Below are positions 1 to 18,049 of a stretch of DNA of 21,528 nucleotides, piece by piece. Both the position numbers and the translations under genes were made by a program. The stretch is from a virus. Its lineage: Duplodnaviria > Heunggongvirae > Uroviricota > Caudoviricetes. Each line of letters opens with the position of its first letter. Position 1 is the stretch's first letter. The notes under the pieces are model-generated. The model was not told where the DNA came from. It worked only from the letters and a program-made list of their open reading frames with translations, and ran no database searches. The DNA is taken from IMG/VR virus record IMGVR_UViG_2526164668_000015. One strand, written 5' to 3'.

Positions 1-202
1 TACTGATAAGTTCCAGATCCTCCTGGCAACTTGCACAAGTCCGACAACCCTGAACGACCAGGCGTCTTCGTTCATCTATGGGATCGCCACACTCACAACA
101 ATGAGTGGCGGATATAGTCTGGTAGTTCAGACGACGCATTTTTATTGCTGTATTGCGCTGTAATTCTTCAATTTCTGATGCTGAATCAATGATGTCCGCC
201 AT
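1..202 (-). CDS. DksA/TraR-family C4 zinc-finger protein (lambda Orf73-like); 3' end lies outside the window
   Basis: Minus-strand ORF starting at ATG 202..200, translating MADIIDSASEIEELQRNTAIKMRRLNYQTISATHCCECGDPIDERRRLVVQGCRTCASCQEDLELIS. It contains two CxxC pairs typical of TraR/DksA zinc ribbons. The ORF runs off the window edge. Confidence 0.6.
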   Translation of the reverse strand, partial: MADIIDSASEIEELQRNTAIKMRRLNYQTISATHCCECGDPIDERRRLVVQGCRTCASCQEDLELIS

Positions 203-429
203 CTTTCATTAATCCCTGAATTGTTGGTTAATACGCTTGAGGGTAAATGCGAATAATAAAAAAGGAGCCTGTAGCTCCCTGATGATTTTGCTTTTCATGT
301 TCACCGTTCCTTAAAAACGCCGTTTAACATGCCGATTGCCAGGCTTAAAATGAGTCGGTGTGAATCCCATCAGCGTTACCGTTTCGCGGTGCTTCTTCAG
401 TACGCTACGGCAAAATGTCATCGACGTTT

Positions 430-615
430 TTATTCCGGAAACTGCTGTCTGGCTTTTTTGATTTCAGAATTAGCCTGACGGGCAATGCTGCGAAGGGCGT
501 TTTCCTGCTGAGGTGTCACTGAACAAGCCCCATGTCGGCAAGCATAAGCACACAGAATATGAAGCCCGCTGCCAGAAAAATGCATTCAGTGGTTGTCATA
601 CCTGGTCTCTTTCAT
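430..615 (-). pseudogene. lambda orf61-like reading frame with an in-frame TGA at codon 10
   Basis: ATG at 615 gives MKETRYDNH, then TGA, then the same frame continues MHFSGSGLHILCAYACRHGACSVTPQQENALRSIARQANSEIKKARQQFPE to TAA at 430. The total of 61 codons matches lambda orf61 length and position relative to orf63. The stop is seen directly in the sequence. Confidence 0.4.
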
Positions 616-787
616 CTGCTTCTGCTTTCGCCACCATCATTTCCAGCTTTTGTGAAAGGGATGTGGCTAACGTATGAAATTCTTCGTCTGTTTCTACTGG
701 TATTGGCACAAACCTGACTCCAATTTGAGCAAGGCTATGTGCCATCTCAATACTCGTTCTTAACTCAACAGGAGATGCTTTGTGCAT
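596..787 (-). CDS. lambda Orf63-like small protein
   Basis: 63-aa ORF at the position and length of lambda orf63, downstream of exo in the pL operon. It overlaps orf60a and orf61 as in lambda. Confidence 0.65.
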   Translation of the reverse strand: MHKASPVELRTSIEMAHSLAQIGVRFVPIPVETDEEFHTLATSLSQKLEMMVAKAEADERDQV

Positions 788-942
788 ACCGCCTCCCGTT
801 TATTATTTATCTTCTCAGCCAGCCGCTGTGCTTTCAGTGGATTTCTGATAACAGAAAGGCCGGGAAATACCCAGCCTCGCTTTGTAACGGAGTAGACGAA
901 AGTGATCGCGCCTACCCGGATATTATCGTGAGGATGCGTCAT
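760..942 (-). CDS. lambda Orf60a-like small protein
   Basis: ORF immediately downstream of exo on the minus strand, 60 aa from the second in-frame Met. Position and length are as in lambda. Confidence 0.6.
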
Positions 943-1619
943 CGCCATTGCTCCCCAAATACAAAACCAATTTCAGCCAGTGCCTCGTCCATTTTTTCGA
1001 TGAACTCCGGCACCATCTCGTCAAAACTCGCCATGTACTTTTCATTCCGCTCAATCACGACATAATGCAGTCCTTCACGCTTCATACGCGGGTCATAGTT
1101 GGCAAAGTACCAGGCATCTTTTCGTGTCACCCACATGCTGTACTGCACCTGGGCCATGTAGGCCGATTTTATGGCCTCGAAACCACCGAGCCGGAATTTC
1201 ATGAAATCCCGGGAGGTAAACGGGCATTTCAGTTCAAGGCCGTTGCCGTCACTGCATAAACCATCCGGAGAGCAGGCGGTGCGCATACTTTCGTCGCGAT
1301 AGATGATCGGGGATTCAGTAACATTCACGCCGGAAGTAAACTCAAACAGGGCTCTGGCGTCGTTTTCGTACTGTTTTCCCCAGGCCAGCGCTTTAGCGTT
1401 AACTTCCGGAGCCACACCGGTGCAAACCTCAGCAAGCAGGGTGTGGAAGTAGGACATTTTCATGTCAGGCCACTTTTTTCCGGAGCGGGGTTTTGCTATT
1501 ACATTATGAACTTCTGACGCTGTGATGACACCGAGCCGTAATTTGTGCCACGCATCATCCCCCTGTTCGACAGCTCTCACGTCGATCCCGGTACGCTGCA
1601 GGATAATGTCCGGTGTCAT
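939..1619 (-). CDS. exo: lambda exonuclease (Red-alpha, 5'-3' dsDNA exonuclease)
   Basis: 226-aa translation [65 protein letters not shown]... ending ...[11 protein letters not shown] matches lambda Exo in length and sequence as recalled. Confidence 0.97.
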
Positions 1620-2403
1620 GCTGCCACCTTCTGCTCTGCGGCTTTCTGTTTCAGGAATCCAAGAGCTTTCACTGCTTCGGCCTGTGTCAGTTCTGACGAT
1701 GCGCGAATGTCGCGGCGAAATATCTGGGAACAGAGCGGCAATAAGTCGTCATCCCATGTTTTATCCAGGGCGATCAGCAGAGTGTTAATCTCCTGCATGG
1801 TTTCATCGTTTACCGGAGTGATGTCGCGTTCCGGCTGGCGTTTCTGCAGTGTATGCAGTATTTTTCGACAATGCGCTCGGCTTCATCCTTGTCATAGATA
1901 CCAGCAAATCCGAAGGCCAGACGGGCACACTGAATCATAGCTTTATGCCGTAACATCCGTTTAGGATGCGACTGCCACGGCCCCGTGATTTCTCTGCCTT
2001 CGCGGGTTTTGAATGGTTCGCGGCGGCATTCATCCATCCATTCGGTAACGCAGATCGGATGATTACGGTCCTTGCGGTAAATCCGGCATGTACAGGATTC
2101 ATTGTCCTGCTCAAAGTCCATGCCATCAAACTGCTGGTTTTCATTGATGATGCGGGACCAGCCATCAACGCCCACCACCGGAACGATGCCGTTCTGCTTA
2201 TCAGGGAAGGCGTAAATTTCTTTCGTCCACGGATTAAGGCCGTACTGGTTGGCGACGATCAACAATGCGATGAACTGCGCATCGCTGGCATCGCCTTTAA
2301 ATGCCGTCTGGCGAAGAGTGGTGATCAGTTCCTGTGGGTCGACAGAATCCATGCCGACACGTTCAGCCAGCTTCCCTGCCAGCGTTGCGAGTGCTGTACT
2401 CAT
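1616..2403 (-). pseudogene. bet: bet (Red-beta single-strand annealing protein) disrupted by frameshift
   Basis: The N-terminal 187 aa (MSTALATLAGKLAERVGMDSV...DKDEAERIVE) match lambda Bet, then the frame changes to KYCIHCRNASRNATSLR-stop. The Bet C-terminus ([18 protein letters not shown]...[11 protein letters not shown]) continues in another frame at 1616..1798. Two extra A residues relative to the lambda codons, in the runs gtcgaaaaatact and gcagaaacgcc near 1830-1860, account for the net +2 shift. Confidence 0.9.
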
Positions 2404-2408
2404 CCGTT

Positions 2409-2825
2409 TTATACCTCTGAATCAATATCAACCTGATGGTGAGCAATGGTTTCAACCATGTACCGGATGTGTTCTGCCATGCGCTCCTGAAACTCAACAT
2501 CGTCATCAAACGCACGGGTAATGGCTTTTTTGCTGGCCCCGTGGCGTTGCAAATGACCGATGCATAGCGATTCAAACAGGTGCTGGGGCAGGCCTTTTTC
2601 CATGTCGTCTGCCAGTTCTGCCTCTTTCTCTTCACGGGCTATCTGCTGGTAGTGACGCGCCCAGCTCTGAGCCTCAAGACGATCCTGAATGTAATAAGCG
2701 TTCATGGCCGAACTCCTGAAATAGCTGTGAAAATATCGCCCGCGAAATGCCGGGCTGATTAGGAAAACAGGAAAGGGGGTTAGTGAATGCTTTTGCTTGA
2801 TCTCAGTTTCAGTATTAATATCCAT
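2409..2825 (-). CDS. gam: Gam, RecBCD inhibitor
   Basis: 138-aa translation [61 protein letters not shown]... matches lambda Gam. Confidence 0.97.
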
Positions 2826-2923
2826 TTTTTATAAGCGTCGACGGCCTCACGAAACATCTTTTCATCGCCAATAAAAGTGGCGATAGTGAATTTAGTCTGG
2901 ATAGCCATAATTGTTTGATCCAT
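2780..2923 (-). CDS. kil: Kil (host killing, FtsZ-targeting) protein
   Basis: 47-codon [50 protein letters not shown], overlapping gam and cIII as in lambda. Confidence 0.85.
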
Positions 2924-3056
2924 TTTTTTGGACTCCTGGCTGATTAAGTATGTCGATAAGGCGTTTCCATCCGTCACGTAATTTACGGGTGATTCGTTCA
3001 AGTAAAGATTCGGAAGGGCAGCCAGCAACAGGCCACCCTGCAATGGCATATTGCAT
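2892..3056 (-). CDS. cIII: CIII, FtsH protease inhibitor that stabilises CII
   Basis: 54-aa translation [54 protein letters not shown] from ATG at 3056. This is below the 60-aa ORF-track cutoff and was found by hand. Confidence 0.9.
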   Translation of the reverse strand: MQYAIAGWPVAGCPSESLLERITRKLRDGWKRLIDILNQPGVQKNGSNNYGYPD

Positions 3057-3128
3057 GGTGTGCTCCTTATTTATACATAACGAAAAACGCCTCGAGTGAA
3101 GCGTAATTGGTATGCGGTAACGCCGCGC

Positions 3129-3497
3129 TCAGGCGGCCTTGATAGTCATATCATCTGAATCAAATATTCCTGATGTATCGATATCGGTAATTCTTATTCC
3201 TTCACTACCATCCATTGGAGGCCATCCTTCCTGACCATTTCCATCATTCCAGTCGAACTCACACACAACACCATATGCATTTAAGTCGCTTGAAATTGCT
3301 ATAAGCAGAGCATGTTGCGCCAGCATGATTAATACAGCATTTAATACAGAGCCGTGTTTATTGAGTCGGTATTCAGAGTCTGACCAGAAATTATTAATCT
3401 GGTGAAGTTTTTCCTCTGTCATTACGTCATGGTCGATTTCAATTTCTATTGATGCTTTCCAGTCGTAATCAATGATGTATTTTTTGATGTTTGACAT
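3129..3497 (-). CDS. ea10: Ea10 (Ssb-like early protein)
   Basis: 122-aa ORF MSNIKKYIIDYDWKASIEIEIDHDVMTEEKLHQINNFW... at the lambda ea10 position between cIII and the N-proximal region. Confidence 0.88.
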   Translation of the reverse strand: MSNIKKYIIDYDWKASIEIEIDHDVMTEEKLHQINNFWSDSEYRLNKHGSVLNAVLIMLAQHALLIAISSDLNAYGVVCEFDWNDGNGQEGWPPMDGSEGIRITDIDTSGIFDSDDMTIKAA

Positions 3498-3514
3498 CTG
3501 TTCATATCCTCACA

Positions 3515-3543
3515 GATAAAAAATCGCCCTCATCTTGGAGGGC
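3515..3543 (-). terminator. candidate intrinsic terminator (minus-strand tL-type) upstream of ea10
   Basis: On the minus strand GCCCTC-caagat-GAGGGC is followed by GATTTTTTAT: a 6-bp GC stem, 6-nt loop and U6 tract. Confidence 0.4.
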
Positions 3544-3685
3544 AAAGAAGATTTCCAATAATCAGAACAAGTCGGCTCCTGTTTAGTTACGAGCGACATT
3601 GCTCCGTGTATTCACTCGTTGGAATGAATACACAGCGCTGTGTTTATTCTGTTGTTTGCGTGAAAATGAAATCCGCCTGAGCGGG

Positions 3686-4567
3686 TTATGACCACTTTTT
3701 GTTTGGGTTTCGTTGGTGAGCGTGGTTTACAGGATTATTTGATATACCCCATAACTCTGACTCGCTTATCTCTACACGAGAGAAAGACCTGCTTTCTTTC
3801 AGTTCTTTTATAAACCTAGAACCTAAGATGACATCTATTGTACCAGAAAGTTCTTGTAAAAGATCTATGTTTTTTCTGAGGAAGAAAATATCTTCTTTAT
3901 ATTTAATTTTTACATAGAATTTATTCTGTATTTTTAATATATCAAAGCATGGCAGATATCTATATCCCTCATATTTTCGCCACTGCTTAACAATTATAAC
4001 ATCTTTTTCATTTACTGCATTAATCAGCCCAAGACCAAGTACAGGTATGAATATTCTATTGTCTGCCGAAAGCGTACAATTATCACCACCAGGCAAATAT
4101 GTATAAATCATGTCGGAATTTTTATACGCATCAACGAATGCACGTAAGAAGCGTACATATTTTTGCCATCCGTTTATACCGAATTTACCATATAAGTATT
4201 CTTTATTTGTTAGAAGAAAACTATTTGTATCAGGATCCTTATCTACAGACCTGTCGATAAGATCTCCAACTACGTTTACAAAGTCAAAGACAGAGTTTAA
4301 TAAGAACAATTGTCTTTCAGTAGGGCGAATTTCAATTATGTAGCCAGGATGAAGACGATATTGCATCTGCTTACGAAGTATACCGAACGCTTGGGTCCGA
4401 GCATCTGAAAGCAACTTCTTGTCGCCATCGCCGTGAGCATTGTTTCTAATAAAACTGATATAATTTGCTAATTTTTCAGCCTCTTTTTTGTGTTTTTTTC
4501 GCTCTGATGCTGAGTCTATTGGTTTTGGTATGGACTTGTAATCAATCTTCTTCATTACGTACCTCAT
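3686..4567 (-). CDS. hypothetical 293-aa protein, AT-rich, translationally coupled to N; function unknown
   Basis: Long minus-strand ORF whose ATG (4567..4565) overlaps the N stop codon (4566..4564) in an ATGA arrangement. It occupies the lambda ral/sieB interval between N and ea10, but the translation (MRYVMKKIDYKSIPKPIDSASERKKHKKEAEKLANYISFIRNN...) resembles neither. Base composition is visibly more AT-rich than the flanking lambda-like genes. Confidence 0.8.
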   Translation of the reverse strand: MRYVMKKIDYKSIPKPIDSASERKKHKKEAEKLANYISFIRNNAHGDGDKKLLSDARTQAFGILRKQMQYRLHPGYIIEIRPTERQLFLLNSVFDFVNVVGDLIDRSVDKDPDTNSFLLTNKEYLYGKFGINGWQKYVRFLRAFVDAYKNSDMIYTYLPGGDNCTLSADNRIFIPVLGLGLINAVNEKDVIIVKQWRKYEGYRYLPCFDILKIQNKFYVKIKYKEDIFFLRKNIDLLQELSGTIDVILGSRFIKELKESRSFSRVEISESELWGISNNPVNHAHQRNPNKKWS

Positions 4568-4887
4568 GCCAATGGAATGGATTCCCCTTTAACCTTTTGT
4601 CTTCCTTGACAAGTTATACCGAACTCACCTGGCTTGCTATACCAAACTCGATGATTCTTGCGCTCAATACGTTGCAGGTTGCTTTCAATCTGTTCGTGGT
4701 ATTCAGCCAGCACCGTAAGGTCTATCGGATTCAGTGCGCTTTCTACTCGTGATTTCGGTTTGCGATTCAGCGAGAGAATAGGGCGGTTAACTGGTTTAGC
4801 GCTTACCCCAACCAACAGGGGATTTGCTGCTTTCCATTGAGCCTGTTTCTCTGCGCGACGTTCGCGGCGGCGTGTTTGTGCATCCAT
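4564..4887 (-). CDS. N: N transcription antiterminator
   Basis: 107-aa translation from ATG 4887: MDAQTRRRERRAEKQAQWKAANPLLVGVSAKPVNRPILSLNRKPKSRVESALNPIDLTVLAEYHEQIESNLQRIERKNHRVWYSKPGEFGITCQGRQKVKGESIPLA. The N-terminal arginine-rich motif matches lambda N as recalled; the C-terminal third carries several substitutions. Confidence 0.95.
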   Translation of the reverse strand: MDAQTRRRERRAEKQAQWKAANPLLVGVSAKPVNRPILSLNRKPKSRVESALNPIDLTVLAEYHEQIESNLQRIERKNHRVWYSKPGEFGITCQGRQKVKGESIPLA

Positions 4888-5044
4888 CTGGATTCTCCTG
4901 TCAGTTAGCTTTGGTTGTGTGTGGGAGTCGTAGTCCTGAACGAAAACACCCCGCAATGGCACATTGGCAGCTAATCCGGATTCGCACTTCCGGCCAATGC
5001 TTCGTTTCGTATCACACACACCAAAGCCTTCTGCTTTGAATGCT

Positions 5045-5075
5045 GCCCTTCTTCAGGGCTTAATTTTTAAGAGCC
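5045..5075 (-). promoter_or_regulatory. nutL (boxA-like plus boxB hairpin)
   Basis: On the minus strand: GGCTCTTAAAAATTAAGCCCTGAAGAAGGGC. BoxB GCCCTGAAGAAGGGC is the exact lambda nutL boxB; the boxA-like element reads GGCTCTTA rather than the recalled lambda CGCTCTTA. Confidence 0.75.
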
Positions 5076-5120
5076 TCACCTTCAATGGTGGTCAGTGCGT
5101 CCTGCTGATGGCTTAAAATT

Positions 5121-5188
5121 ACAAGGAAGATTGTATGTTGTAAACAAGAAATATTGTAAAAAGGGGCGTGAAAAACAAACTCCATTGT
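5121..5188. promoter_or_regulatory. oL operators (434-type 14-mers) with pL
   Basis: Three 14-bp sites with ACAA...TTGT ends: ACAAGGAAGATTGT (5121-5134), ACAAGAAATATTGT (5144-5157), ACAAACTCCATTGT (5175-5188). They are of the 434 operator class and sit upstream of the N leader. Confidence 0.85.
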
Positions 5189-5238
5189 TTTTAAACGGAA
5201 AATAGTTTGTTTTTTTGTTATCGAGATTGAGGTGGGGA

Positions 5239-6591
<1,353 letters not shown>

Positions 6592-6599
6592 GACATTCC

Positions 6600-6631
6600 C
6601 GCTCTTACACATCCCAGCCCTGAAAAAGGGC
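6600..6631 (+). promoter_or_regulatory. nutR (boxA CGCTCTTAC plus boxB GCCCTGAAAAAGGGC)
   Basis: Exact lambda nutR boxA (6600-6608) and boxB hairpin (6617-6631) lie between cro and cII. Confidence 0.85.
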
Positions 6632-6710
6632 ATCAAAATAAACCACACCTATGGTGTATGCATTTATTTGCATACATTCAATCAATTGTTATCTAAGGAA
6701 ATACTTACAT

Positions 6711-7004
6711 ATGGTTCGTGCAAACAAACGCAACGAGGCTCTACGAATCGAGAGTGCGTTGCTTAACAAAATCGCAATGCTTGGAACTGAGAAGACAGCG
6801 GAAGCTGTGGGAGTTGATAAGTCGCAGATCAGCAGGTGGAAGAGGGATTGGATTCCAAAGTTCTCAATGCTGCTTGCTGTTCTTGAATGGGGTGTCGTCG
6901 ACGACGACATGGCTCGATTGGCACGACAAGTTGCTTCGATTCTCACCAATAAAAAACGCCCGGCGGCAACCGAGCGTTCTGAACAAATCCAGATGGAATT
7001 CTGA
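6711..7004 (+). CDS. cII: CII transcriptional activator
   Basis: 97-aa translation MVRANKRNEALRIESALLNKIAMLGTEKTAEAVGVDKSQISRWKRDWIPKFSMLLAVLEWGVVDDDMARLARQVASILTNKKRPAATERSEQIQMEF matches lambda CII. Confidence 0.95.
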   Translation: MVRANKRNEALRIESALLNKIAMLGTEKTAEAVGVDKSQISRWKRDWIPKFSMLLAVLEWGVVDDDMARLARQVASILTNKKRPAATERSEQIQMEF

Positions 7005-7026
7005 GGTTATTACTGGAACTATCAAC
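6950..7026 (-). ncRNA. oop: oop antisense RNA (overlaps 3' end of cII)
   Basis: Minus strand GTTGATAGTTCCAGTAATAACCTCAGAATTCCATCTGGATTTGTTCAGAACGCTCGGTTGCCGCCGGGCGTTTTTTATT matches the recalled lambda oop RNA with a few substitutions. It ends in a GC-rich hairpin plus U-tract. Confidence 0.7.
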
Positions 7027-7036
7027 AGGAGTCATT

Positions 7037-7936
7037 ATGACAAATACAGCAAAAATACTCAACTTCGGCAGAGGTAACTTTGCCGGACAGGAGCGTAATG
7101 TGGCAGATCTCGATGATGGTTACGCCAGACTATCAAATATGCTGCTTGAGGCTTATTCAGGCGCAGATCTGACCAAGCGACAGTTTAAAGTGCTGCTTGC
7201 CATTCTGCGTAAAACCTATGGGTGGAATAAACCAATGGACAGAATCACCGATTCTCAACTTAGCGAGATTACAAAGTTACCTGTCAAACGGTGCAATGAA
7301 GCCAAGTTAGAACTCGTCAGAATGAATATTATCAAGCAGCAAGGCGGCATGTTTGGACCAAATAAAAACATCTCAGAATGGTGTATCCCTCAAAACGAGG
7401 GAAAATCCCCTAAAACGAGGGATAAAACATCCCTCAAATTGGGGGATTGCTATCCCTCAAAACAGGGGAACACAAAAGACACTAATACAAAAGAAAATAG
7501 AAAAGATTATTCGTCAGAGAATTCTGGCGAATCCTCTGACCAGCCAGAAAACGACCTTTCTGTGGTGAAACCTGATGCTGCAATTCAGAGCGGCAGCAAA
7601 TGGGGGACAGCAGAAGACCTGACCGCCGCAGAGTGGATGTTTGACATGGTGAAGACTATCGCGCCATCAGCCAGAAAACCGAATTTTGCAGGGTGGGCTA
7701 ACGATATCCGCCTGATGCGTGAACGTGACGGACGTAACCACCGCGATATGTGTGTGCTGTTCCGCTGGGCCTGCCAGGACAACTTCTGGTCCGGTAATGT
7801 GCTGAGCCCGGCCAAACTCCGCGACAAGTGGACCCAGCTCGAAATCAACCGTAACAAGCAACAGGCAGTCGTGACAGCCAGCAAACCAAAACTCGACCTG
7901 ACAAACACAGACTGGATTTACGGGGTGGATTTATGA
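7037..7936 (+). CDS. O: O replication initiator
   Basis: 299-aa translation MTNTAKILNFGRGNFAGQERNVADLDDGYARLSNMLLEAYSGADLTKRQFKVLL... matches lambda O and contains the origin iterons. Confidence 0.97.
   Translation: MTNTAKILNFGRGNFAGQERNVADLDDGYARLSNMLLEAYSGADLTKRQFKVLLAILRKTYGWNKPMDRITDSQLSEITKLPVKRCNEAKLELVRMNIIKQQGGMFGPNKNISEWCIPQNEGKSPKTRDKTSLKLGDCYPSKQGNTKDTNTKENRKDYSSENSGESSDQPENDLSVVKPDAAIQSGSKWGTAEDLTAAEWMFDMVKTIAPSARKPNFAGWANDIRLMRERDGRNHRDMCVLFRWACQDNFWSGNVLSPAKLRDKWTQLEINRNKQQAVVTASKPKLDLTNTDWIYGVDL
7385..7530 (+). repeat. lambda-type origin: four ~18-bp O-binding iterons plus AT-rich unwinding region
   Basis: ATCCCTCAAAACGAGGGA, ATCCCCTAAAACGAGGGA, ATCCCTCAAATTGGGGGA and ATCCCTCAAAACAGGGGA in tandem, followed by an AT-rich stretch, all inside O. 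Confidence 0.85.
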
Positions 7937-8634
7937 AAAACATCGCCGCACAGATGGTTAACTTTGACCGTGAGCAGATGCGTCGGATCGCCAACAACAT
8001 GCCGGAACAGTACGACGAAAAGCCTCAGGTACAGCAGGTAGCGCAGATCATCAACGGTGTGTTCAGCCAGTTACTGGCAACTTTCCCGGCGAGCCTGGCT
8101 AACCGTGACCAGAACGAACTGAACGAAATCCGCCGCCAGTGGGTTCTGGCTTTCCGGGAAAACGGGATCACCACAATGGAACAGGTTAACGCAGGAATGC
8201 GCGTAGCCCGTCGGCAGAATCGACCATTTCTGCCATCACCCGGGCAGTTTGTTGCATGGTGCCGGGAAGAAGCATCCGTTATCGCCGGACTGCCAAACGT
8301 CAGCGAGCTGGTTGATATGGTTTACGAGTATTGCCGGAAGCGAGGCCTGTATCCGGATGCGGAGTCTTATCCGTGGAAATCAAACGCGCACTACTGGCTG
8401 GTTACCAACCTGTATCAGAACATGCGGGCCAATGCGCTTACTGATGCGGAATTACGGCGCAAGGCTGCCGATGAACTGTCCTGTATGACCGCACGAATTA
8501 ACCGTGGTGAGGCTATACCTGAACCAGTAAAACAACTTCCTGTCATGGGCGGTAGACCTCTAAATCGTGCACAGGCTCTGGCGAAGATCGCAGAAATCAA
8601 AGCTAAGTTTGGGCTGAAAGGAGCAAGTGTATGA
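7933..8634 (+). CDS. P: P replication protein (DnaB helicase loader)
   Basis: 233-aa translation MKNIAAQMVNFDREQMRRIANNMPEQYDEKPQVQQVAQIINGVFSQLLATFPAS... matches lambda P. The start overlaps the O stop. Confidence 0.97.
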   Translation: MKNIAAQMVNFDREQMRRIANNMPEQYDEKPQVQQVAQIINGVFSQLLATFPASLANRDQNELNEIRRQWVLAFRENGITTMEQVNAGMRVARRQNRPFLPSPGQFVAWCREEASVIAGLPNVSELVDMVYEYCRKRGLYPDAESYPWKSNAHYWLVTNLYQNMRANALTDAELRRKAADELSCMTARINRGEAIPEPVKQLPVMGGRPLNRAQALAKIAEIKAKFGLKGASV

Positions 8635-8921
8635 CGGGCAAAGAGGCAATTATTCATTACCTGGGGACGCATAATAGCTTCTGTGCGCCGGACGTTGCCG
8701 CGTTAACAGGCGCAACAGTAACCAGCATAAATCAGGCCGCGGCTAAAATGGCACGGGCAGGTCTTCTGGTTATCGAAGGTAAGGTCTGGCGAACGGTGTA
8801 TTACCGGTTCGCTACTAGGGAAGAACGGGAAGGAAAGATGAGCACGAACCTGATTTTTAAGGAGTGTCGCCAGAGTGCCGCGATGAAACGGGTATTGGCG
8901 GTATATGGAGTTAAAAGATGA
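8631..8921 (+). CDS. ren: Ren (protects against Rex exclusion)
   Basis: 96-aa ORF MTGKEAIIHYLGTHNSFCAPDVAALTGATVTSINQAAAKMARAGLLVIEGK... matches lambda Ren and is coupled to P. Confidence 0.9.
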   Translation: MTGKEAIIHYLGTHNSFCAPDVAALTGATVTSINQAAAKMARAGLLVIEGKVWRTVYYRFATREEREGKMSTNLIFKECRQSAAMKRVLAVYGVKR

Positions 8922-8994
8922 CCATCTACATCACTGAGCTAATAACAGGCCTGCTGGTAATCGCAGGCCTTTTTATTTGGGGGAGAGGGAAGTC

Positions 8995-9435
8995 ATGAAA
9001 AAACTAACCTTTGAAATTCGATCTCCAGCACATCAGCAAAACGCTATTCACGCAGTACAGCAAATCCTTCCAGACCCAACCAAACCAATCGTAGTAACCA
9101 TTCAGGAACGCAACCGCAGCTTAGACCAAAACAGGAAGCTATGGGCCTGCTTAGGTGACGTCTCTCGTCAGGTTGAATGGCATGGTCGCTGGCTGGATGC
9201 AGAAAGCTGGAAGTGTGTGTTTACCGCAGCATTAAAGCAGCAGGATGTTGTTCCTAACCTTGCCGGGAATGGCTTTGTGGTAATAGGCCAGCCAACCAGC
9301 AGGATGCGTGTAAGCGAATTTGCGGAGCTATTAGAGCTTATACAGGCATTCGGTACAGAGCGTGGCGTTAAGTGGTCAGACGAAGCGCGACTGGCTCTCG
9401 AATGGAAAGCGCGATGGGGAGATCGGGCTGCATGA
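8995..9435 (+). CDS. ninB: NinB (Orf recombination mediator)
   Basis: 146-aa ORF MKKLTFEIRSPAHQQNAIHAVQQILPDPTKPIVVTIQERNRSLDQNRKLWACLGDV... matches lambda NinB. Confidence 0.9.
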   Translation: MKKLTFEIRSPAHQQNAIHAVQQILPDPTKPIVVTIQERNRSLDQNRKLWACLGDVSRQVEWHGRWLDAESWKCVFTAALKQQDVVPNLAGNGFVVIGQPTSRMRVSEFAELLELIQAFGTERGVKWSDEARLALEWKARWGDRAA

Positions 9436-9959
9436 CTATCAAATCAAATACGCCAGCACACGACAAGGACTGCTGGCAAACGCCGCTTTGGCTTTTTGAT
9501 GCACTGGATATTGAGTTTGGATTCTGGCTGGATTCGGCAGCGAGCGACAAAAACGCTCTGTGCGCTCACTGGCTAACTGAGGCTGACGACGCGCTAAATT
9601 CTGAGTGGATAAGCCACGGTGCAATCTGGAATAACCCACCGTACAGCAATATCAGGCCGTGGGTGGAAAAAGCCGCTGAGCAGTGCATACAACAGCGACA
9701 GACGGTAGTGATGCTTGTGCCAGAGGATATGTCTGTCGGATGGTTCAGCAAGGCTCTGGAGAGTGTTGACGAAGTTCGTATTATCACTGATGGACGGATT
9801 AATTTTATCGAACCATCGACAGGGCTGGAGAAGAAGGGAAACAGCAAAGGCTCCATGCTGCTGATTTGGCGACCGTTCATTAGTCCTCGACGGATGTTTA
9901 CTATCGTATCCAAAGCGGCATTGATGGCGATCGGGCAGGGCGTCAGGAGGGCGACATGA
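9432..9959 (+). CDS. phage Dam-family DNA N6-adenine methyltransferase (orphan MTase)
   Basis: 175-aa [51 protein letters not shown]...[21 protein letters not shown]... with the (D/N)PPY catalytic motif. It is ATGA-coupled to ninB on one side and ninE on the other, in the position of lambda ninC/ninD. Confidence 0.8.
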
Positions 9960-10138
9960 GGCGACAACGACGAAGTTTCACCGACATCATCTGCGAAAAC
10001 TGCAAATACCTTCCAACGAAACGCTCCAGAAATAAACGCAAGCCAATCCCAAAAGAATCTGACGTAAAAACCTTCAACTACACGGCTCACCTGTGGGATA
10101 TCCGGTGGCTAAGACATCGTGCGAGGAATACAAGGTGA
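9956..10138 (+). CDS. ninE: NinE
   Basis: 60-aa [63 protein letters not shown], lambda NinE-like. Confidence 0.8.
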
Positions 10139-10305
10139 TTGACCCAAATCGAAGTTACGAACAAGAAAGCGTCGAGCGGGCTTTAACGTGCGCTAATTGC
10201 GGTCAGAAGCTGCATGTGCTGGAAGTTCACGTGTGTGAGCACTGCTGTGCAGAGCTGATGAGCGATTCGAATAGCTCGATGCACGAGGAAGAAGATGATG
10301 GCTAA
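10135..10305 (+). CDS. ninF: NinF (Cys-rich small protein), probable GTG start
   Basis: [56 protein letters not shown] matches lambda NinF. The GTG at 10135 overlaps the ninE stop. Confidence 0.75.
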
Positions 10306-10909
10306 ACCAGCGCGAAGACGATGTAAAAACGATGAATGTCGGGAATGGTTTCACCCTGCATTCGCTAATCAGTGGTGGTGCTCTCCAGAGTGTGGAACCA
10401 AGATAGCACTCGAACGACGAAGTAAAGAACGCGAAAAAGCGGAAAAAGCAGCAGAGAAGAAACGACGACGAGAGGAGCAGAAACAGAAAGATAAACTTAA
10501 GATTCGAAAACTCGCCTTAAAGCCCCGCAGTTACTGGATTAAACAAGCCCAACAAGCCGTAAACGCCTTCATCAGAGAAAGAGACCGCGACTTACCATGT
10601 ATCTCGTGCGGAACGCTCACGTCTGCTCAGTGGGATGCCGGACATTACCGGACAACTGCTGCGGCACCTCAACTCCGATTTGATGAACGCAATATTCACA
10701 AGCAATGCGTGGTGTGCAACCAGCACAAAAGCGGAAATCTCGTTCCGTATCGCGTCGAACTGATTAGCCGCATCGGGCAGGAAGCAGTAGACGAAATCGA
10801 ATCAAACCATAACCGCCATCGCTGGACTGTCGAAGAGTGCAAGGCGATCAAGGCAGAGTACCAACAGAAACTCAAAGACCTGCGAAACAGCAGAAGTGAG
10901 GCTGCATGA
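10295..10909 (+). CDS. ninG: NinG (Rap) recombination-associated endonuclease
   Basis: 204-aa [54 protein letters not shown]... matches lambda NinG. Confidence 0.9.
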
Positions 10910-11571
10910 ATATCTACGAAAGAATTGATGGCAGCAAATACCGAAATATTTGGGTAGCTGGCGACCTGCACGGATGCTACACGAACCTGATGAACAAACT
11001 GGATACGATTGGATTCGACACCAAAAAAGACCTGCTCATCTCGGTTGGCGATTTGGTTGATCGCGGTACAGAGAACGTCGAATGTCTGGAATTAATCACA
11101 TTCCCCTGGTTCAGAGCTGTGCGTGGAAACCATGAGCAAATGATGATTGATGGCTTATCAGAGCGTGGAAACGTTAATCACTGGCTGCTTAATGGCGGTG
11201 GCTGGTTCTTTAATCTCGATTACGACAAAGAGACTCTGGCTAAAGTTCTTGCCCATAAAGCAGAAGAACTTCCGTTAATCATCGAACTGGTGAGCAAAGA
11301 TAAAAAATATGTCATTTGCCACGCCGATTATCCTTGTGATAAATACGAGTTTGGAAAGCCAGTTGATCATCAGCAGGTAATCTGGAACCGCGAACGAATC
11401 AGCAACTCACAAGACGGGATCGTGAAAGAAATCAAAGGCGCGGACACGTTCATCTTTGGTCATACGCCAGCAGTGAAACCACTCAAATTTGCCAACCAGA
11501 TGTATATCGATACTGGCGCAGTGTTCTGCGGAAACCTCACATTGATTCAGGTACAGGGAGAAGGCGCATGA
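10906..11571 (+). CDS. ninI: NinI Ser/Thr protein phosphatase (lambda PPase)
   Basis: 221-aa ORF with calcineurin-like metallophosphatase motifs GDLHG, GDLVDRG and GNHE. It matches lambda NinI and follows ninG directly with no ninH. Confidence 0.9.
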
Positions 11572-11657
11572 GACTCGAAAGCGTAGCTAAATTTCATTCG
11601 CCAAAAAGCCCGATGATGAGCGACTCACTACTGGCCACAGTTTATTGGTTTTCGTAA
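11568..11657 (+). pseudogene. Q: truncated remnant of lambda Q antiterminator (29 codons)
   Basis: ATG overlapping the ninI stop encodes [20 protein letters not shown], identical to the lambda Q N-terminus as recalled. It then diverges (LLATVYWFS) and stops at 11655-11657. Confidence 0.7.
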
Positions 11658-11700
11658 CTGAGTCATTTTATTATTTTATTGCAACTTTTAATCTTTTATA

Positions 11701-11747
11701 GTGCGAAATAAATGGAGCTGGCATTCATTTCGCACTTTATGTTTTTG
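11701..11747. terminator. hairpin plus T-tract between convergent genes (candidate bidirectional terminator)
   Basis: GTGCGAAAT (11701-11709) pairs with ATTTCGCAC (11727-11735) as a 9-bp stem around a 17-nt loop, followed by TTTATGTTTTTG. It lies between the Q remnant (+) and the convergent outer-membrane gene (-). Confidence 0.45.
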
Positions 11748-11782
11748 TTGGACTTATGTTATTTTGATTGAATTCAATTCAG

Positions 11783-12742
11783 TTAAAAAAAGAAGGTGAT
11801 TGCTCCATTTATAAATGAATAGTCATCCCCTGTCTTGAATTCTGATGTTACTTTATTAAATGCTAGTGTGAAGGCTACAGGTGCATACCCAATTGTTGCG
11901 CCAACTTGATATTCATCAACAGTTTTGTTTAGCGATACTGTTGTTTGTTTCGTCTGTATTGTTTTTCCTTCGAGAGTATAGTTGCGATTGACATCTCGTC
12001 TTTCCATACCTGCAAAAATCTTGTATTTGAATCCGCTTGTATCGGACATATGCATTAAACCACGGGGAGCCAGCAGACCAAAGCCATTATCCGAATTGAA
12101 GGTTTTATCATTACCAATGGCAATGGTTGCGCCATATGCTACATATTGAAATAAGTTTCCAGTAACAGCAGAAACTTCAGGGTATAATCCAACATTAGCA
12201 CCTAAAATATCCATACTTGGTGTCATGGATAGCATCCCTTTTACAGTATAACCGTAGCGATTCTCTATTTGATCATCCCATGCATGATATTTTTCTGCCC
12301 CAATAATCTCATGAGCTTTATTTTGTACTTTCTGACCGCCTGCGTCGGGGCCAACAACACCTATGTCAGTACCTAATCGATAGCGAATCCAGTCATTCGC
12401 AAGGGAGTTCCATTCAATACCAGTGTGAGTGTATGCACTAAAAGCTCTGTCTCCAGTTACAGCTGTGTTGTGTCTTTTATTACTGCCTGATGGAGAGTAA
12501 ATATCTTGCGCAATATGGAGAGATAATTGGCTCGAGTCTGAGATATCGTGGCTATATCCCAGAAATAAGCCTTGTGAGTAATCATCTCTGTTTTCATGTT
12601 TATTGCCATAAATATCATTAAGTATTGGTTGAAACTTCCCTGCATCATCATTTGCTAATGATAATGCAAGGCTGTTCGCGATAGCTGAACACGTGGTAAA
12701 TGACAGAGCAATAAAGACGCCAGCGATGACACTTTTTTTCAT
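11783..12742 (-). CDS. outer-membrane beta-barrel protein; size and architecture compatible with an LpxR-type lipid A 3'-O-deacylase (unverified)
   Basis: 319-aa ORF with signal peptide MKKSVIAGVFIALSFTTCSAIA and C-terminal aromatic beta-signal ...INGAITFFF. It is AT-rich with a long AT-rich upstream region (12743-13130). The LpxR assignment rests only on length, OMP architecture and a recalled prophage-encoded LpxR in pathogenic E. coli. Confidence 0.8.
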   Translation of the reverse strand: MKKSVIAGVFIALSFTTCSAIANSLALSLANDDAGKFQPILNDIYGNKHENRDDYSQGLFLGYSHDISDSSQLSLHIAQDIYSPSGSNKRHNTAVTGDRAFSAYTHTGIEWNSLANDWIRYRLGTDIGVVGPDAGGQKVQNKAHEIIGAEKYHAWDDQIENRYGYTVKGMLSMTPSMDILGANVGLYPEVSAVTGNLFQYVAYGATIAIGNDKTFNSDNGFGLLAPRGLMHMSDTSGFKYKIFAGMERRDVNRNYTLEGKTIQTKQTTVSLNKTVDEYQVGATIGYAPVAFTLAFNKVTSEFKTGDDYSFINGAITFFF

Positions 12743-13216
12743 ATGTTATTGTCTTCCTTTTTTTTGAATGGTGCGCGTATTTTACATACATGAGTTTGTA
12801 ATACAAGGTGCGTAATCAATATGATGTTTTATAATTGCGTGAGACAATTGATTTATTCGTTTTTTATTGCGGTTTTTATTATCTTTTAATGTAACGGTGT
12901 TTTTATTAAGTGTGTTTGCGTGGTGTTTTATGTTTTTTATAATTTTTATTTTATTAAATTTAAATGCATTAGTAATGGCTATTCTATATAGCAATATAAG
13001 AACTGTTACAAAAAAAGGGGGGCAATTACAGGTAGTTATGGATGATGAGTGAAACAGATATTGGAGAACCGGGGAATGAATGATGTCTGAGTCTTATATA
13101 TCAGAACTCCTTCGCTGTCGCTGGGGGCTCCTGTGCTTATGTCGTTTCCCCGATTCGGTTTTGAACGATTACCGAATGTTGAAGAATTATGCCAAAATAT
13201 AGAAAGGATTTACTGC

Positions 13217-13906
13217 ATGAATACCCAATATTTACAGTATGTTCGTGAGCAACTTATGGCAGCTACTGCTGACTTGAACGGAGCAACGAAAGGCCAGCTC
13301 GAAGCCTGGCAGGAGCATGCACAATTTGATACTGGTACATACAAACGAAAGAAGCTGCGCATTCTGGATGTGGTAACTGGCAAGATGATTACGCTGGATA
13401 ATACGCCGACTTCCGGTAAGCAGTCGTACGCAAAAGGTTCATCCATTGCTTTGGTCAGCCCGGTTGAATTCTCAACCTCTTCATGGCGCCGCGCGGTTTT
13501 GTCTCTCGATGAACATCAGAAAGCATGGTTGCTTTGGTGTTACAGCGAAAGCGTTCGATGGGGGCATCAGGTCACCATAACGCAATGGGCATGGAGCGAG
13601 TTTAAAGATTTGTTAAGTAACAGAAAAATTGCAGGTAAGACACTGGATCGCCTGAAGACGTTAATCTGGCTGGCTGCACAGGATGTGAAGAGCGAACTTG
13701 CAGGGCGTGAGGCCTATGAATACCAGACACTGGCATCATTGGTGGGAGTGACAACAAAAAACTGGTCCGAGACATTTACTGAACGCTGGGTTGCAATGAA
13801 GCACATTTTTCTACAGCTTGATAGTGATGCTTTATTGCTTGTGACGAGAACACGTTCAAAACAAAAGGCAGCATTTTTACAGCAAAATATTGCAAAACTG
13901 GATTAA
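13217..13906 (+). CDS. putative late-gene antiterminator (Q-like, non-lambda family), 229 aa; alternative start at 13133
   Basis: ORF with an AAAGGA Shine-Dalgarno before ATG 13217. It sits where Q is expected, after the nin genes and the Q remnant, and is immediately followed by a sigma70 promoter plus short-transcript terminator. There is no recognisable similarity to lambda Q, so the assignment is by position and context only. Confidence 0.5.
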   Translation: MNTQYLQYVREQLMAATADLNGATKGQLEAWQEHAQFDTGTYKRKKLRILDVVTGKMITLDNTPTSGKQSYAKGSSIALVSPVEFSTSSWRRAVLSLDEHQKAWLLWCYSESVRWGHQVTITQWAWSEFKDLLSNRKIAGKTLDRLKTLIWLAAQDVKSELAGREAYEYQTLASLVGVTTKNWSETFTERWVAMKHIFLQLDSDALLLVTRTRSKQKAAFLQQNIAKLD

Positions 13907-13918
13907 AAGCCATATACT
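13890..13918 (+). promoter_or_regulatory. candidate late promoter (pR'-like): TTGCAA-N17-TATACT
   Basis: -35 TTGCAA (13890-13895), 17-nt spacer, -10 TATACT (13913-13918), directly downstream of the Q-like ORF stop. Confidence 0.5.
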
Positions 13919-13951
13919 TCATGCAAATTTGGTATGTTGTAAAAAATGTAT

Positions 13952-13978
13952 AAACCCGCTGCCGAGTGGGTTTTTTTT
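13952..13978 (+). terminator. intrinsic terminator (tR'-like) about 30-50 nt downstream of the candidate late promoter
   Basis: AAACCCGC-tgccga-GTGGGTTT followed by TTTTTTTT: an 8-bp stem (one G-U pair), 6-nt loop and T8 tract. Confidence 0.65.
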
Positions 13979-14247
13979 ATGCCCTGAGTTGTACTTGTAC
14001 GGTAAACATGCTGGCTGCTATGTAATAGAGTTTTTTTAGCCTGTAACCTCTTGACGGCATTGAATTGCTTTTGTTATGAGTTGTAAGCCAATGTTATCAT
14101 CTTGTATTGGGGTGGTTATGAAGGATGGTGCGCTGCTCAGGAGTTCTTCACTTTTTATTGCCTACATGGGATGCCTTGGATGGGGGAGTGCTTATTTCTA
14201 TGGATGGGGTACTTCTTTTTACTACGGCTTCCCATGGTGGATTGTAG

Positions 14248-14595
14248 GTGCAGGTGTTGATGATGTTGCCAGAAGTTTATTTTTTTGCAGTTATCGTCAT
14301 TGCTATATTTCTTATCGGTTGGGGTATTGGTGTTGTATTCTTTTTCGCAGTGAAAAGAAAACATTCTATGCAAGAGCTAAATGTATTTCGCCTTTATTTT
14401 GCTGTGGAATTATTGTTTGTGCCGGCAATTATTGAGTTTTCTATATTGAGACAGAAGATTCAGGTACCTCTTTTGCTACTGTCAGCAGCGATTGCGCTGG
14501 CGGTTACAATTTCGATAAGATCTTATGGGCGATTTTTATCGGTATCATGCTTCTATGATAAGCCATTTATAAAAAACATTTTTTTGAGATTGTGA
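14248..14595 (+). CDS. small integral membrane protein (about 3 TM helices), AT-rich cargo gene
   Basis: Translation ...LPEVYFFAVIVIAIFLIGWGIGVVFFFAVKRKHSMQELNVFRLYFAVELLFVPAIIEFSILRQKIQVPLLLLSAAIALAVTISI... has three hydrophobic segments. The start is ambiguous (GTG 14248, ATG 14260 or 14263). An overlapping upstream ORF (14076-14435) may be its frameshifted N-terminus. Confidence 0.5.
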   Translation: MQVLMMLPEVYFFAVIVIAIFLIGWGIGVVFFFAVKRKHSMQELNVFRLYFAVELLFVPAIIEFSILRQKIQVPLLLLSAAIALAVTISIRSYGRFLSVSCFYDKPFIKNIFLRL

Positions 14596-14834
14596 TGATT
14601 GCTTTTGTGGCATATTTTTGGCTTTTTTCATTTCTGACAGGATATTACAAACCACAGTTTAAGAAAGAATATGAAATGATTAATTATAATGATGGTTGGT
14701 ATTATGTTCTTGCTCGTTATGATAATTGTCTGGTTTTGTCTACTTCTTTCAATGCAGGTAGTAAAAGGTTTGTCATTTATCAATCAGCACAAGATAAGAA
14801 TCTTCAGGTTGATATTGTAAGGACCAGAATTTAA
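14592..14834 (+). CDS. small protein with N-terminal TM helix, coupled to the preceding membrane protein
   Basis: MMIAFVAYFWLFSFLTGYYKPQFKKEYEMINYNDGWYYVLARYDNCLVLSTSFNAGSKRFVIYQSAQDKNLQVDIVRTRI. The ATG overlaps the upstream TGA stop (ATGA). Confidence 0.5.
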   Translation: MMIAFVAYFWLFSFLTGYYKPQFKKEYEMINYNDGWYYVLARYDNCLVLSTSFNAGSKRFVIYQSAQDKNLQVDIVRTRI

Positions 14835-15124
14835 TTGGCTGCATAAATAATATTTTAAGTTGCAAGTTGGCTATTCGTAGGAATAGAACCTTAGGCATGC
14901 TGAATGCGTTTTCTGAACATTGTTTTATAAACTGTGTCTGCTTGCTGTTGTGATCCTGCTTTTAGTGATGGTGATGATGGATTTCACCAGCAGGATAATG
15001 TTGGTACTGACTGATGGCGCTCTGGTCTGCGGCATTGTGGTATTGCTGTGGCCGATGATGAAAGAACAGGTGATGCTGCCAACTTACTGATTTAGTGTAT
15101 GATGGTGTTTTTTGAGGTGCTCCA

Positions 15125-15400
15125 GTGGCTTCTGTTTCTATCAGCTGTCCCTCCTGTTCAGCTACTGACGGGGTGGTGCGTAACGGCAAAAGCACCGCCG
15201 GACATCAGCGCTATCTCTGCTCTCACTGCCGTAAAACATGGCAACTGCAGTTCACTTACACCGCTTCTCAACCCGGTACGCACCAGAAAATCATTGATAT
15301 GGCCATGAATGGCGTTGGATGCCGGGCAACTGCCCGCATTATGGGCGTTGGCCTCAACACGATTTTACGTCACTTAAAAAACTCAGGCCGCAGTCGGTAA
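15125..15400 (+). CDS. insA: IS1 InsA
   Basis: 91-aa translation [91 protein letters not shown]. Confidence 0.95.
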
Positions 15401-15822
15401 CCTCGCGCATACAGCCGGGCAGTGACGTCATCGTCTGCGCGGAAATGGACGAACAGTGGGGCTATGTCGGGGCTAAATCGCGCCAGCGCTGGCTGTTTTA
15501 CGCGTATGACAGTCTCCGGAAGACGGTTGTTGCGCACGTATTCGGTGAACGCACTATGGCGACGCTGGGGCGTCTTATGAGCCTGCTGTCACCCTTTGAC
15601 GTGGTGATATGGATGACGGATGGCTGGCCGCTGTATGAATCCCGCCTGAAGGGAAAGCTGCACGTAATCAGCAAGCGATATACGCAGCGAATTGAGCGGC
15701 ATAACCTGAATCTGAGGCAGCACCTGGCACGGCTGGGACGGAAGTCGCTGTCGTTCTCAAAATCGGTGGAGCTGCATGACAAAGTCATCGGGCATTATCT
15801 GAACATAAAACACTATCAATAA
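15319..15822 (+). CDS. insB: IS1 InsB (transposase produced as InsAB' by frameshift)
   Basis: 167-aa ORF ...[72 protein letters not shown] overlapping insA in the -1 frame. Confidence 0.95.
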
Positions 15823-16581
15823 GTTGGAGTCATTACCAGTACCTTGTAGCCTTTATTTGCAGGATATAAAGGTAAAAACTCGGTTAATAATGGGTCAGGA
15901 CCTTTAATAGTTGTAAACTTGAACAAAATGACGTTAATATTATTAACGTAGATGATATTATCAGAACAACCTTCTTGCCATCCATTTTATCGCATTCAAA
16001 CATTATAAATGTACTTAGTATTATTCATAAATGATATCAAGATGGCACCTTAACCTTCACCCAAACGACGTTAACCAAATAAAAGAAAGTTAAGATGCCA
16101 TCGAAATATCATTAATTGCTGCATATCCTTTATCATACAATAACAAATGTTCTCCTTATTGTTTTTTTGTGCATCCCTGCTTTTAATATTTACATGCAAT
16201 GGAAAAACAGTATATGGAGAGAACTTTTCCGCAAAACATTTTCATATCCTACGCTCCTGAAATATAACAGATCCACTCAGACATAAATCGCAAAAAATTC
16301 AAGGTTAACGTAAAATGTAAAAAACTTAGCGTAACTAATATTGGTTTACCTTCGTTACTGTAAATACGCCAACATAGCATAGATAATCAATGAGGTATAG
16401 TCTGTTTATGAGAATTAATTTATAAAAACAAGTGAATAACAATGGAGAATTAATCCTTGCAGCTTATGAGTTTGTGAAGCAATTGGGAAAGAAAAATATA
16501 AATGATGTGAAAAAAAATAATTATTCGTCTTACCAATGCACTCGAGACTACTGATCCTACCCACGTAATGTGGACACGGCC

Positions 16582-17435
16582 CTAAGCGAGATTATGGTTT
16601 TCAAATTGTTCCGGGCTGAGACCGCCACAGGCACTGTGACGACGCCAGCGATTGTAATCACACTCGATATAATTAAACACCGTTGCCCGCATTATTTCCC
16701 GGCTGCTAAAGCGTTCCCCGTGGATACATTCCACCTTCAGCGAATGAAAGAAGCTTTCCACACAGGCATTGTATAACAGTAGCCTTTCGCACTCATACTG
16801 CCACGCAGGTTGTGTCGCTTCAGCAGCGCCTGATAATCCCCTGAACAGTATTGACCACCACGGTCCGTATGAACAATGACGCTTTCCGGGCGTCTTCTCC
16901 GCCACAACGCCATTTGCAGTGCATCACAGGCCAGTTGTGCTGTCATTCGCGGTGACATCGACCAGCCAATAACGGCGCGTGACCACAGGTCGATGACTAC
17001 TGCGAGATACAACCAGCCCTCATCGGTACGCAAGTACGTGATGTCACCCGCCCACTTCTGGTTCGGGCCGCTGGCGCTGAAGTCCTGCTCCAGCAGATTC
17101 TCCAATACGGGCAGGCCATGTGCACGGTAGCTGACCGGGCTGAACTTCCGGCTGGCTTTCGCCCGCAGCCCCTGACGACGCAGGCTGGCGGCAATGGTTT
17201 TAATATTGAACTCCGGCAGTTCGTCAGCAAGGCGGGGAGCACCGTATCGCTGCTTTGCCTCAAAGAATGCCTTATGGACAGCGGCATCGCAGGTGAGCCG
17301 AAACTGTTGGCGCAGGCTCATCTGGTGACGACGCCTGAGCCAGACATACCAGCCGCTGCGGGCAACCCGAAGTACACGACACATCGCTTTGATGCTGAAC
17401 TCTGCCCGATGATTTTCGATGAAGACATACTTCAT
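16582..17435 (-). pseudogene. IS3-family transposase OrfB (InsF-like DDE) with an internal frameshift
   Basis: InsF-like sequence [30 protein letters not shown]...[30 protein letters not shown] runs to about 16775 and then stops ([14 protein letters not shown]-stop). The InsF C-terminus ([19 protein letters not shown]...[14 protein letters not shown]) continues in another frame at 16582-16773. This is consistent with a 1-nt deletion near TGTTATACAATGCC, where IS3 as recalled has TGTTATGACAATGCC. Confidence 0.8.
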
Positions 17436-17731
17436 TTCAGGCGCTTCGCGAAGTATGTCGCGGCCTTTTGGAGGATGGCCAGTTCCTCAGCCTGCTCCGC
17501 CAGTTGTCGTTTAAGGCGGACATTTTCAGCGGCCAGTTCGCTTTCGCGCTCTGACGAACTCATTTGTTGCTGCTGTTTACTGCGCCAGGCATAAAGCTGG
17601 GATTCATACAGGCTGAGTTCACGGGCTGCGGCGGCCACACCGATGCGTTCAGCGAGTTTCAGGGCTTCGTTACGAAATTCAGGCGTATGTTGTTTACGGG
17701 GCTTCTTGCTGATTGATACTGGTTTTGTCAT
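17432..17731 (-). CDS. IS3-family transposase OrfA (InsE-like, HTH)
   Basis: 99-aa [102 protein letters not shown]. Confidence 0.9.
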
Positions 17732-18049
17732 GAGTCACCTCTGGTTGAGAGTTTACTCACTTAGTCCTGTGTCCACTATTGGTGGGTAAGATCATAAATA
17801 CCCATTCAATACGCTGTATGGCCGCTGAAAGAACATTTTCTTCCGCTATGACTTTTTGTGTACCTCTCATACATAGCCCTGATAAAGCATTCTGATTTAA
17901 CTTTCTGTCAAATACGAGGCAACCAGTCCGTAATCAACCACACAACAAACCAGAACCCCATCATCAGAATCAAATACTCCATGATGACTGAAATACTTAT
18001 TTTCATATCATTACCGCACCCTGATAATATTCAGTACAGAATTATCCCA

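Follow-up and report, generated by a model that had tools for sequence, protein, structure and literature searches.

The window analysed here, a stretch of 21,528 nucleotides, contains a 714-bp fragment (15838-16551) that is exactly bounded by an IS1 element on its left side (15069-15837) and by an IS3-family element on its right side (16552-17794). The GC content of the fragment is 30.8%, compared with 51-60% in the two flanking elements. The initial annotation had pointed out this AT-rich stretch and its strong dyad symmetries, and its boundaries and composition are as described there. The locus raises the question whether such an island is a regulatory region or a small-RNA locus that is still at work, or the remainder of something larger. 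The fragment is very probably a passive relic, corresponding to the left ~0.7 kb of a ~2.5-kb islet on a few IncF-type plasmids of livestock E. coli. In the present window, it almost certainly has no function.

The left border is formed by the right end of IS1 (position 15837). This element lies on the + strand (insA at 15125-15400, insB' at 15319-15822), comprises ~768 bp starting at 15069/70 and has the ends GGTGATGCTGCC…/…GGAGTCATTACC. It is 99.4-99.6% identical to annotated IS1 copies in the related loci L004-L006. The 9-bp target duplication is absent, the flanks being GAAAGAACA on the left and AGTACCTTG on the right. The IS3-family element is located on the - strand and shows an orfA/orfB layout. 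It starts with TGATCCTACCC… (TGATCC…) at 16552, ends with …AAGATCA at 17794 and is 82% identical to IS3. An identical copy in E. coli C3 plasmid A (NZ_CP010120), which also carries the truncated fragment, is called an ISEc16-family frameshifted pseudogene by PGAP. Here, a 3-bp target duplication is absent as well (flanks tac and taa). Since both elements lack target duplications, the junctions most likely arose through recombination or deletion mediated by IS copies rather than through simple insertion. In the ISEc16-like element, the transposase gene orfB (16582-17435, - strand) is split over two frames (ORFs 16582-16905 and 16737-17435). As its transposase is frameshifted, the element is probably immobile.

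Two copies of the locus are available that lack the IS elements of the window, CP043735 (L006) and a 3.4-kb Logan contig (L007, ERR15157074_676938). The fragment aligns to positions 6001-6713 of L006 with 99.6% identity and to positions 456-1173 of L007 with 96.8% identity, and both sequences run on uninterrupted on either side. The 714 bp represent the left end of a parent islet of ~2.5 kb with a GC content of ~30%. From left to right, this islet consists of an IS66 remnant, ~570 bp of non-coding DNA, a gene on the + strand (hereafter orf247), a convergent AraC-type gene on the - strand and an IS3 remnant. Six PLSDB plasmids cover at least 80% of a 3.1-kb islet query taken from L006, and the same order is found in independent contigs, e.g. 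L002 and L007. Thus, it is unlikely that L006 and L007 are both assembly artefacts. The fragment was found only on plasmids (22 PLSDB records; 16 of 5,426 complete E. coli genomes), and most of the records carrying it originate from cattle, pigs and sheep.

Comparison with the intact copies divides the fragment into two parts. Its first 570 bp (15838-16407, 31% GC) are colinear with L006 6001-6570 and L007 456-1030; they constitute the left end of the islet and the native 5' flank of orf247. The last 144 bp (16408-16551, + strand) are the first 48 codons of orf247 itself. The initial annotation had found no convincing ORF and had interpreted the island as a regulatory region or small-RNA locus orphaned from its gene by the two insertions. 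An intact ORF is indeed absent, and most of the fragment is indeed upstream non-coding DNA isolated by IS elements, as synteny with L006 and L007 demonstrates. On the other hand, positions 16408-16551 are a recognisable 5' end of a pseudogene, so the upstream region is still joined to the beginning of its gene. The alternative that the fragment is simply the interior of a disrupted known gene holds for the last 144 bp only, the remainder being non-coding DNA upstream of it.

To the left of the islet, the IS66 tnpA-like remnant (- strand) is truncated at residue 61 and ends at most 8 bp from the L006 equivalent of position 15838. The left ~190 bp of the fragment were considered as the missing 5' end of this remnant, which was rejected because in tblastn the remnant stops at residue 61, left of the fragment. 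Within the non-coding part, positions 16251-16300 are hypervariable between haplotypes (several substitutions and a 4-5-nt indel), whereas the flanking non-coding DNA differs by 1-2%.

Across the plasmids, the linkage of tpx, orf247 and the AraC-type gene is constant and the adhesin neighbour varies. The islet is usually found near adhesin loci, separated from them by IS elements; these loci are K88-like, AIDA-I or another chaperone-usher operon. In most records, the plasmid tpx gene (WP_024185287) is found ~0.5 kb to the left of the islet (L006 4969-5478, L002 6976-7482, L003 5863-6369). Its product appears to resemble the chromosomal Tpx of E. coli K-12, and it may be a captured chromosomal gene.

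The AraC-family protein of the islet comprises 239 residues and is intact in L007 (1881-2600, - strand), where its gene is convergent with orf247. The gene is frameshifted in CP043735 (L006 7423-8053, - strand) and in CP043823. The protein matches HTH_AraC/HTH_18, has its best model matches in YdeO and GadX and is 50% identical to the product of a plasmid gene annotated as appY. Its score is 121 bits against an NCBIfam equivalog cut-off of 348 for YdeO; with scores so far below the equivalog cut-offs, it is no orthologue of a named regulator. With its low GC content (~30%) and its AraC-family protein, the parent islet resembles horizontally acquired AT-rich islets with regulators of the AppY/YdeO/GadX class. 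It differs from these in the sub-cut-off scores, and in the window the regulator gene is missing.

The intact product of orf247 (P0001) has 247 residues and is encoded on the + strand of L007 (1031-1774), where the ORF begins with MRINLEKQVNNNGELILAAYEF. In the window, the corresponding ATG is located at 16408, and position 16390 offers an alternative ATG in the same frame. Three lesions, read directly from the alignment and the window sequence, inactivate the stub. Codon 6 is TAA (16423-16425) in place of the GAA found in L007 and L002. A run of eight A residues (16510-16517), compared with seven in L006, causes a +1 frameshift, so that the stub reads …DVKKNNYSSYQCTRDY* where the sequence otherwise continues as …DVKKIIIRLTNALETT…. 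Finally, the IS3-like element cuts the gene after codon 48, at 16551. Given the TAA codon and the frameshift, nothing in the fragment can be expressed as a protein. The orf247 of L006 carries the same TAA and a later frameshift, and in complete plasmids retaining more of the gene its products have 80-147 residues. Since orf247 is also broken in these plasmids, decay of the islet is general.

A word-indexed search with orf247 retrieved near-identical fragments only. An exhaustive HMMER scan of 1.84 billion representatives yielded 120 relatives at E <= 1e-3, of which 95 reached E <= 1e-10. Most of the relatives share a C-terminal domain of ~85 residues with the pattern …EGINY.A.RLAAAFNHGF.DK…VRMIL.AKE.L…DGLSGEYAE…. 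The N-terminal ~60 residues, the part encoded in the window, are also common to P0007, P0107 and P0110. The protein matches PHROG 614 (E 1.3e-23) as well as PHROGs 14548 and 368, all of which have no assigned function. Relatives found by tblastn on phage-plasmids are named 'ead/Ea22-like family protein' by PGAP. The homologue P0007 belongs to a prophage and lies between cIII/ERF/SSB and xis/int, tightly packed against its neighbours; this location corresponds to the exo-xis position of lambda ea22. The ea22 gene has been described as sequence-diverse, modular and pro-lysogenic (PMC7093339, PMC10834534), and a structure of the C-terminal domain of lambda Ea22 has been reported (PMC10834534).

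Judged by these similarities, orf247 is a diverged member of the mosaic prophage ead/Ea22-like family and not an ea22 orthologue. It shares the C-terminal domain with this family (40-55% identity), the N-terminus with some members, the PHROG matches and the genomic position of P0007, and it fits the sequence-diverse, modular character of the family and of lambda Ea22 (PMC7093339, PMC10834534). Assignment as an ea22 orthologue was not made because Pfam PF13935 (Ead_Ea22) was not detected in P0001 and no PDB sequence matched it at E <= 1, in a copy of the PDB that may lack the C-terminal domain structure of lambda Ea22 (PMC10834534). The relative P0016 contains PF13935 (E 2.2e-27) in an N-terminal part that is absent from orf247. 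In contrast to Ead/Ea22-like prophage genes, orf247 is not part of a phage operon: it is plasmid-borne, has a GC content of ~32% and stands alone behind a 570-bp AT-rich leader, beside an AraC-type gene. Furthermore, the copy in the window is a dead stub of 48 codons.

No orf247-related loci were found in GTDB. The nearest diverged homologue, P0006, is encoded in the Logan contig L009 (SRR10988543, 5601-6336) with 38-56% amino acid identity and is split into ORFs of 91 and 111 residues. It adjoins genes for a ShlB-type two-partner-secretion transporter, an HMW1C-type glycosyltransferase and an EAL-domain protein and lies beside a Tn3-family transposon. As a second example, L009 shows a gene of phage type that has ended up on mobile DNA other than a phage, close to an adhesin locus. 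Its upstream DNA shares nothing with the fragment.

The 570 bp of non-coding DNA were inspected for genes and signals. Ten small ORFs (at least 27 codons, both strands, copies from the window or L007) gave no match to PHROGs; hence a hidden pseudogene is absent from this part. A hydrophobic 37-residue ORF (16147-16260) was evaluated as a type I toxin or lipoprotein and was rejected: it lacks a Shine-Dalgarno sequence, and all four differences from L007 change the amino acid. Scanning against Rfam 15 (E <= 10) returned sub-threshold eukaryotic models only, the best being a plant microRNA model with 23 bits (gathering threshold 85). No terminator-like site was found in 15700-16700. The number of promoter-like sites (six, with 4.0 ± 1.9 expected by chance) is not above chance. 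The proposal in the initial annotation that the island is a small-RNA locus finds no support in these results.

The palindrome reported earlier, with its 9-bp arms, is present and perfect (ACGTTAATA-t-TATTAACGT, 19 bp, 15931-15949). Perfect arms of at least 9 bp with a spacer of 0-3 nt occurred in 3.4% of 1000 dinucleotide-preserving shuffles (p ~0.034), so the palindrome is marginally unusual for the composition of the fragment. Both of its arms contain the heptamer ACGTTAA, which is the most over-represented 7-mer (four copies, 0.14 expected). The copies are located at 15931, 15943 (reverse), 16068 (in the loop of the hairpin described below) and 16305 (reverse). A 7-mer at least equally surprising was found in 5% of the shuffles, which corresponds to p ~0.05 after correction for all 7-mers. 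The excess of ACGTTAA over expectation could point to a binding site.

The 14-nt inverted repeat noted at 16041-16054 and 16089-16102 (13 of 14 matches, 34-nt spacer) was likewise confirmed exactly. Inverted 14-mer pairs with at most one mismatch within 60 nt occurred in 11 of 300 shuffles. The repeat is the core of a longer imperfect inverted repeat (16027-16116) formed by positions 16027-16058 and 16085-16116, i.e. 32-nt arms with 81% complementarity around a 26-nt loop. Folded as RNA, this hairpin has a predicted energy of -25.5 kcal/mol for the + strand (z -6.7) and of -36.4 kcal/mol for the - strand (z -7.2), and none of 200 shuffles matched its stability on either strand. Thus, the 88-nt hairpin is genuine and not a product of chance. 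At three positions where the + strand has a C·A mismatch, the - strand has a G·U pair. The only substitution in the stem among the variants, T>C at 16090 (L002), likewise leaves a G·U pair in the - strand. This pattern is suggestive of an RNA read from the - strand; a strand bias of three out of three transition mismatches has a probability of ~0.25 by chance. The sequence directly after the hairpin reads AATTGCTGC on the + strand and TATGAATAA on the - strand. Interpretation as an intrinsic (Rho-independent) terminator was rejected, because a U-tract is absent on both strands and the scan found no terminator-like site.

Diverged copies of the hairpin were sought as a source of covariation in E. 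coli genomes, phages, GTDB representatives, JGI metagenomes and IMG/VR, and only copies from the same islet with at least 93.8% identity were obtained. Among these, no covariation is seen, and the hairpin is conserved no better than its surroundings. At this level of identity among all copies, conservation could reflect either function or a recent common ancestor.

The strongest competing explanation is that the non-coding part has retained a function as a cis-regulatory or small-RNA element. Either the hairpin would then be transcribed, from the - strand or at the 5' end of a + strand leader that begins near 16031, or the dyads and ACGTTAA repeats would bind a regulator, with the AraC-type protein of the islet or H-NS as candidates. 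The extreme fold stability (z -6.7 and -7.2) agrees with this, and so does the preference of the three transition mismatches and of T>C at 16090 for G·U pairs on the - strand. A promoter-like sequence (TTCAAA-18-TATTAT, 15995-16024) is placed such that a + strand transcript would begin at the base of the hairpin, and the four ACGTTAA copies would provide binding sites. Several observations oppose it, however. The best Rfam score of 23 bits, far from the required 85, belongs to a plant microRNA, a terminator-like site is lacking and promoter-like sites are at chance level. The strand bias is expected in about a quarter of cases, and the shuffles leave the heptamer at p ~0.05 and the palindrome at p ~0.03. 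Conservation of the hairpin does not exceed that of its surroundings. The only gene in the window on which such an element could act is inactivated, and the gene for the AraC-type regulator is missing. Ongoing function is considered unlikely. A more specific version, in which the hairpin and the four ACGTTAA copies would be a functional - strand RNA or an operator of an undescribed Ea22-like/AppY-YdeO-like plasmid module, is a long shot. If true, a phage Ea22-like gene and an AppY/YdeO-like regulator would be controlled together, and the element would survive by acting in cis on neighbouring DNA.

Two further explanations concern the surroundings of the fragment and the origin of the hairpin. 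The initial annotation had also suggested that the island is the original upstream region of the adjacent secreted-protein operon, i.e. a displaced promoter region of the K88/F4-like fimbrial genes. Physical closeness speaks for this, as does the location of the islet near adhesin loci across IS elements in several plasmids. The orientation is wrong, however: every fimbrial gene lies on the - strand, with the last ending at 18050, so that the fragment lies beyond the 3' end of the operon. In L001, the regulators of the operon (a PapB/FocB-type protein and an HTH protein) are encoded at its far 5' end, and it is tpx-orf247-AraC that stays constant while K88-like, AIDA-I and other chaperone-usher neighbours alternate. 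A fimbrial promoter is hence extremely improbable. The hairpin might alternatively be a MITE or have formed when the two ends of an IS element were fused by its deletion, given 32-nt terminal inverted arms around a short loop amid IS debris. A flanking direct repeat is not evident, and a second copy outside the islet is missing. No such copy was detected by distant blastn in 5,426 complete E. coli genomes, an exact scan for the two-arm pattern had no match in the GTDB species representatives, and matches of the pattern in JGI metagenomes and IMG/VR were the same islet only. A dispersed repeat of the MITE, REP or ERIC type was rejected, since this islet, present in 16 of the 5,426 E. coli genomes, is its sole location. 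An origin from a MITE or deleted IS is thus very unlikely. A reading of the fragment as purely 'junk', on the other hand, leaves the existence of an over-stable hairpin unexplained. Our best guess is that the hairpin was once a 5'-leader or operator-type element of orf247 and is now left with no target gene.

The history of the passive relic may be outlined as follows. IS1 lies at the left edge of the islet, and the ISEc16-like element interrupts orf247 after codon 48, the rest of the gene and the regulator being lost from the right side. The present junctions would have resulted from IS-mediated recombination or deletion. Besides its truncation, the stub is damaged by the premature TAA and the +1 frameshift. 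The hairpin is inherited from the upstream region of orf247 in the islet. This AT-rich DNA attracts insertions: IS1 and IS3-family elements have arrived in it independently in other plasmids. In L002, an IS1 with a perfect 9-bp duplication (GTAAACTTG) is inserted at the equivalent of 15913-15921. In L014 and L004, IS1 is flanked by the perfect 9-bp duplication TAAATGTAC at the equivalent of 16006-16014. An IS3-family junction at ~16342-16345 is found in L003, L005 and L013 (AIDA-I plasmids of pig ETEC and a metagenome contig). The 714-bp fragment is therefore a recurrent, independently hit AT-rich target of IS elements. IS1 prefers AT-rich targets, and the repeated hits fit this preference.

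In these properties the locus corresponds to the IS 'graveyards' of IncF virulence plasmids of E. coli. Common features are a short unique segment between IS1 and an IS3-family element, junctions without duplications, a truncated pseudogene, an adjoining adhesin operon and the occurrence of the same segment in varied IS contexts on related plasmids. There is no essential difference; one unusual detail is that IS1 of the window joins the fragment to a chromosomal lambdoid prophage instead of plasmid DNA. Positions 1-15068 belong to this prophage (bet/exo, O/P, nin genes, LpxR, Q and DUF3927), whereas the sequence from 15069 to the end of the window is 99.97% identical to E. coli C3 plasmid A. 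The prophage-IS1-plasmid junction is present in none of the 5,426 complete E. coli genomes. Either IS1 mediated the integration of a plasmid segment into the prophage, or the assembly is chimeric at the IS1 repeat. Within the prophage, a gene for a 319-residue LpxR-family lipid A deacylase (11783-12742, - strand) forms an AT-rich moron (35-41% GC) between the nin region and Q. Stx phages carry stx between Q and the DUF3927 gene; in this prophage, stx is missing from that interval.

For the biology of these plasmids, the finding means that the apparent 'regulatory island' is very probably an IS-trapped scrap of a decaying plasmid islet, which takes it off the list of candidate small-RNA or regulatory loci. 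The prophage-IS1-plasmid junction within the window is flagged at the same time. The locus also provides a clear example of AT-rich DNA that has been hit repeatedly and independently by IS1 and IS3-family elements. Furthermore, the parent islet adds a previously unannotated, plasmid-borne and highly diverged relative of the prophage Ea22-like family, paired with an AppY/YdeO-like regulator.
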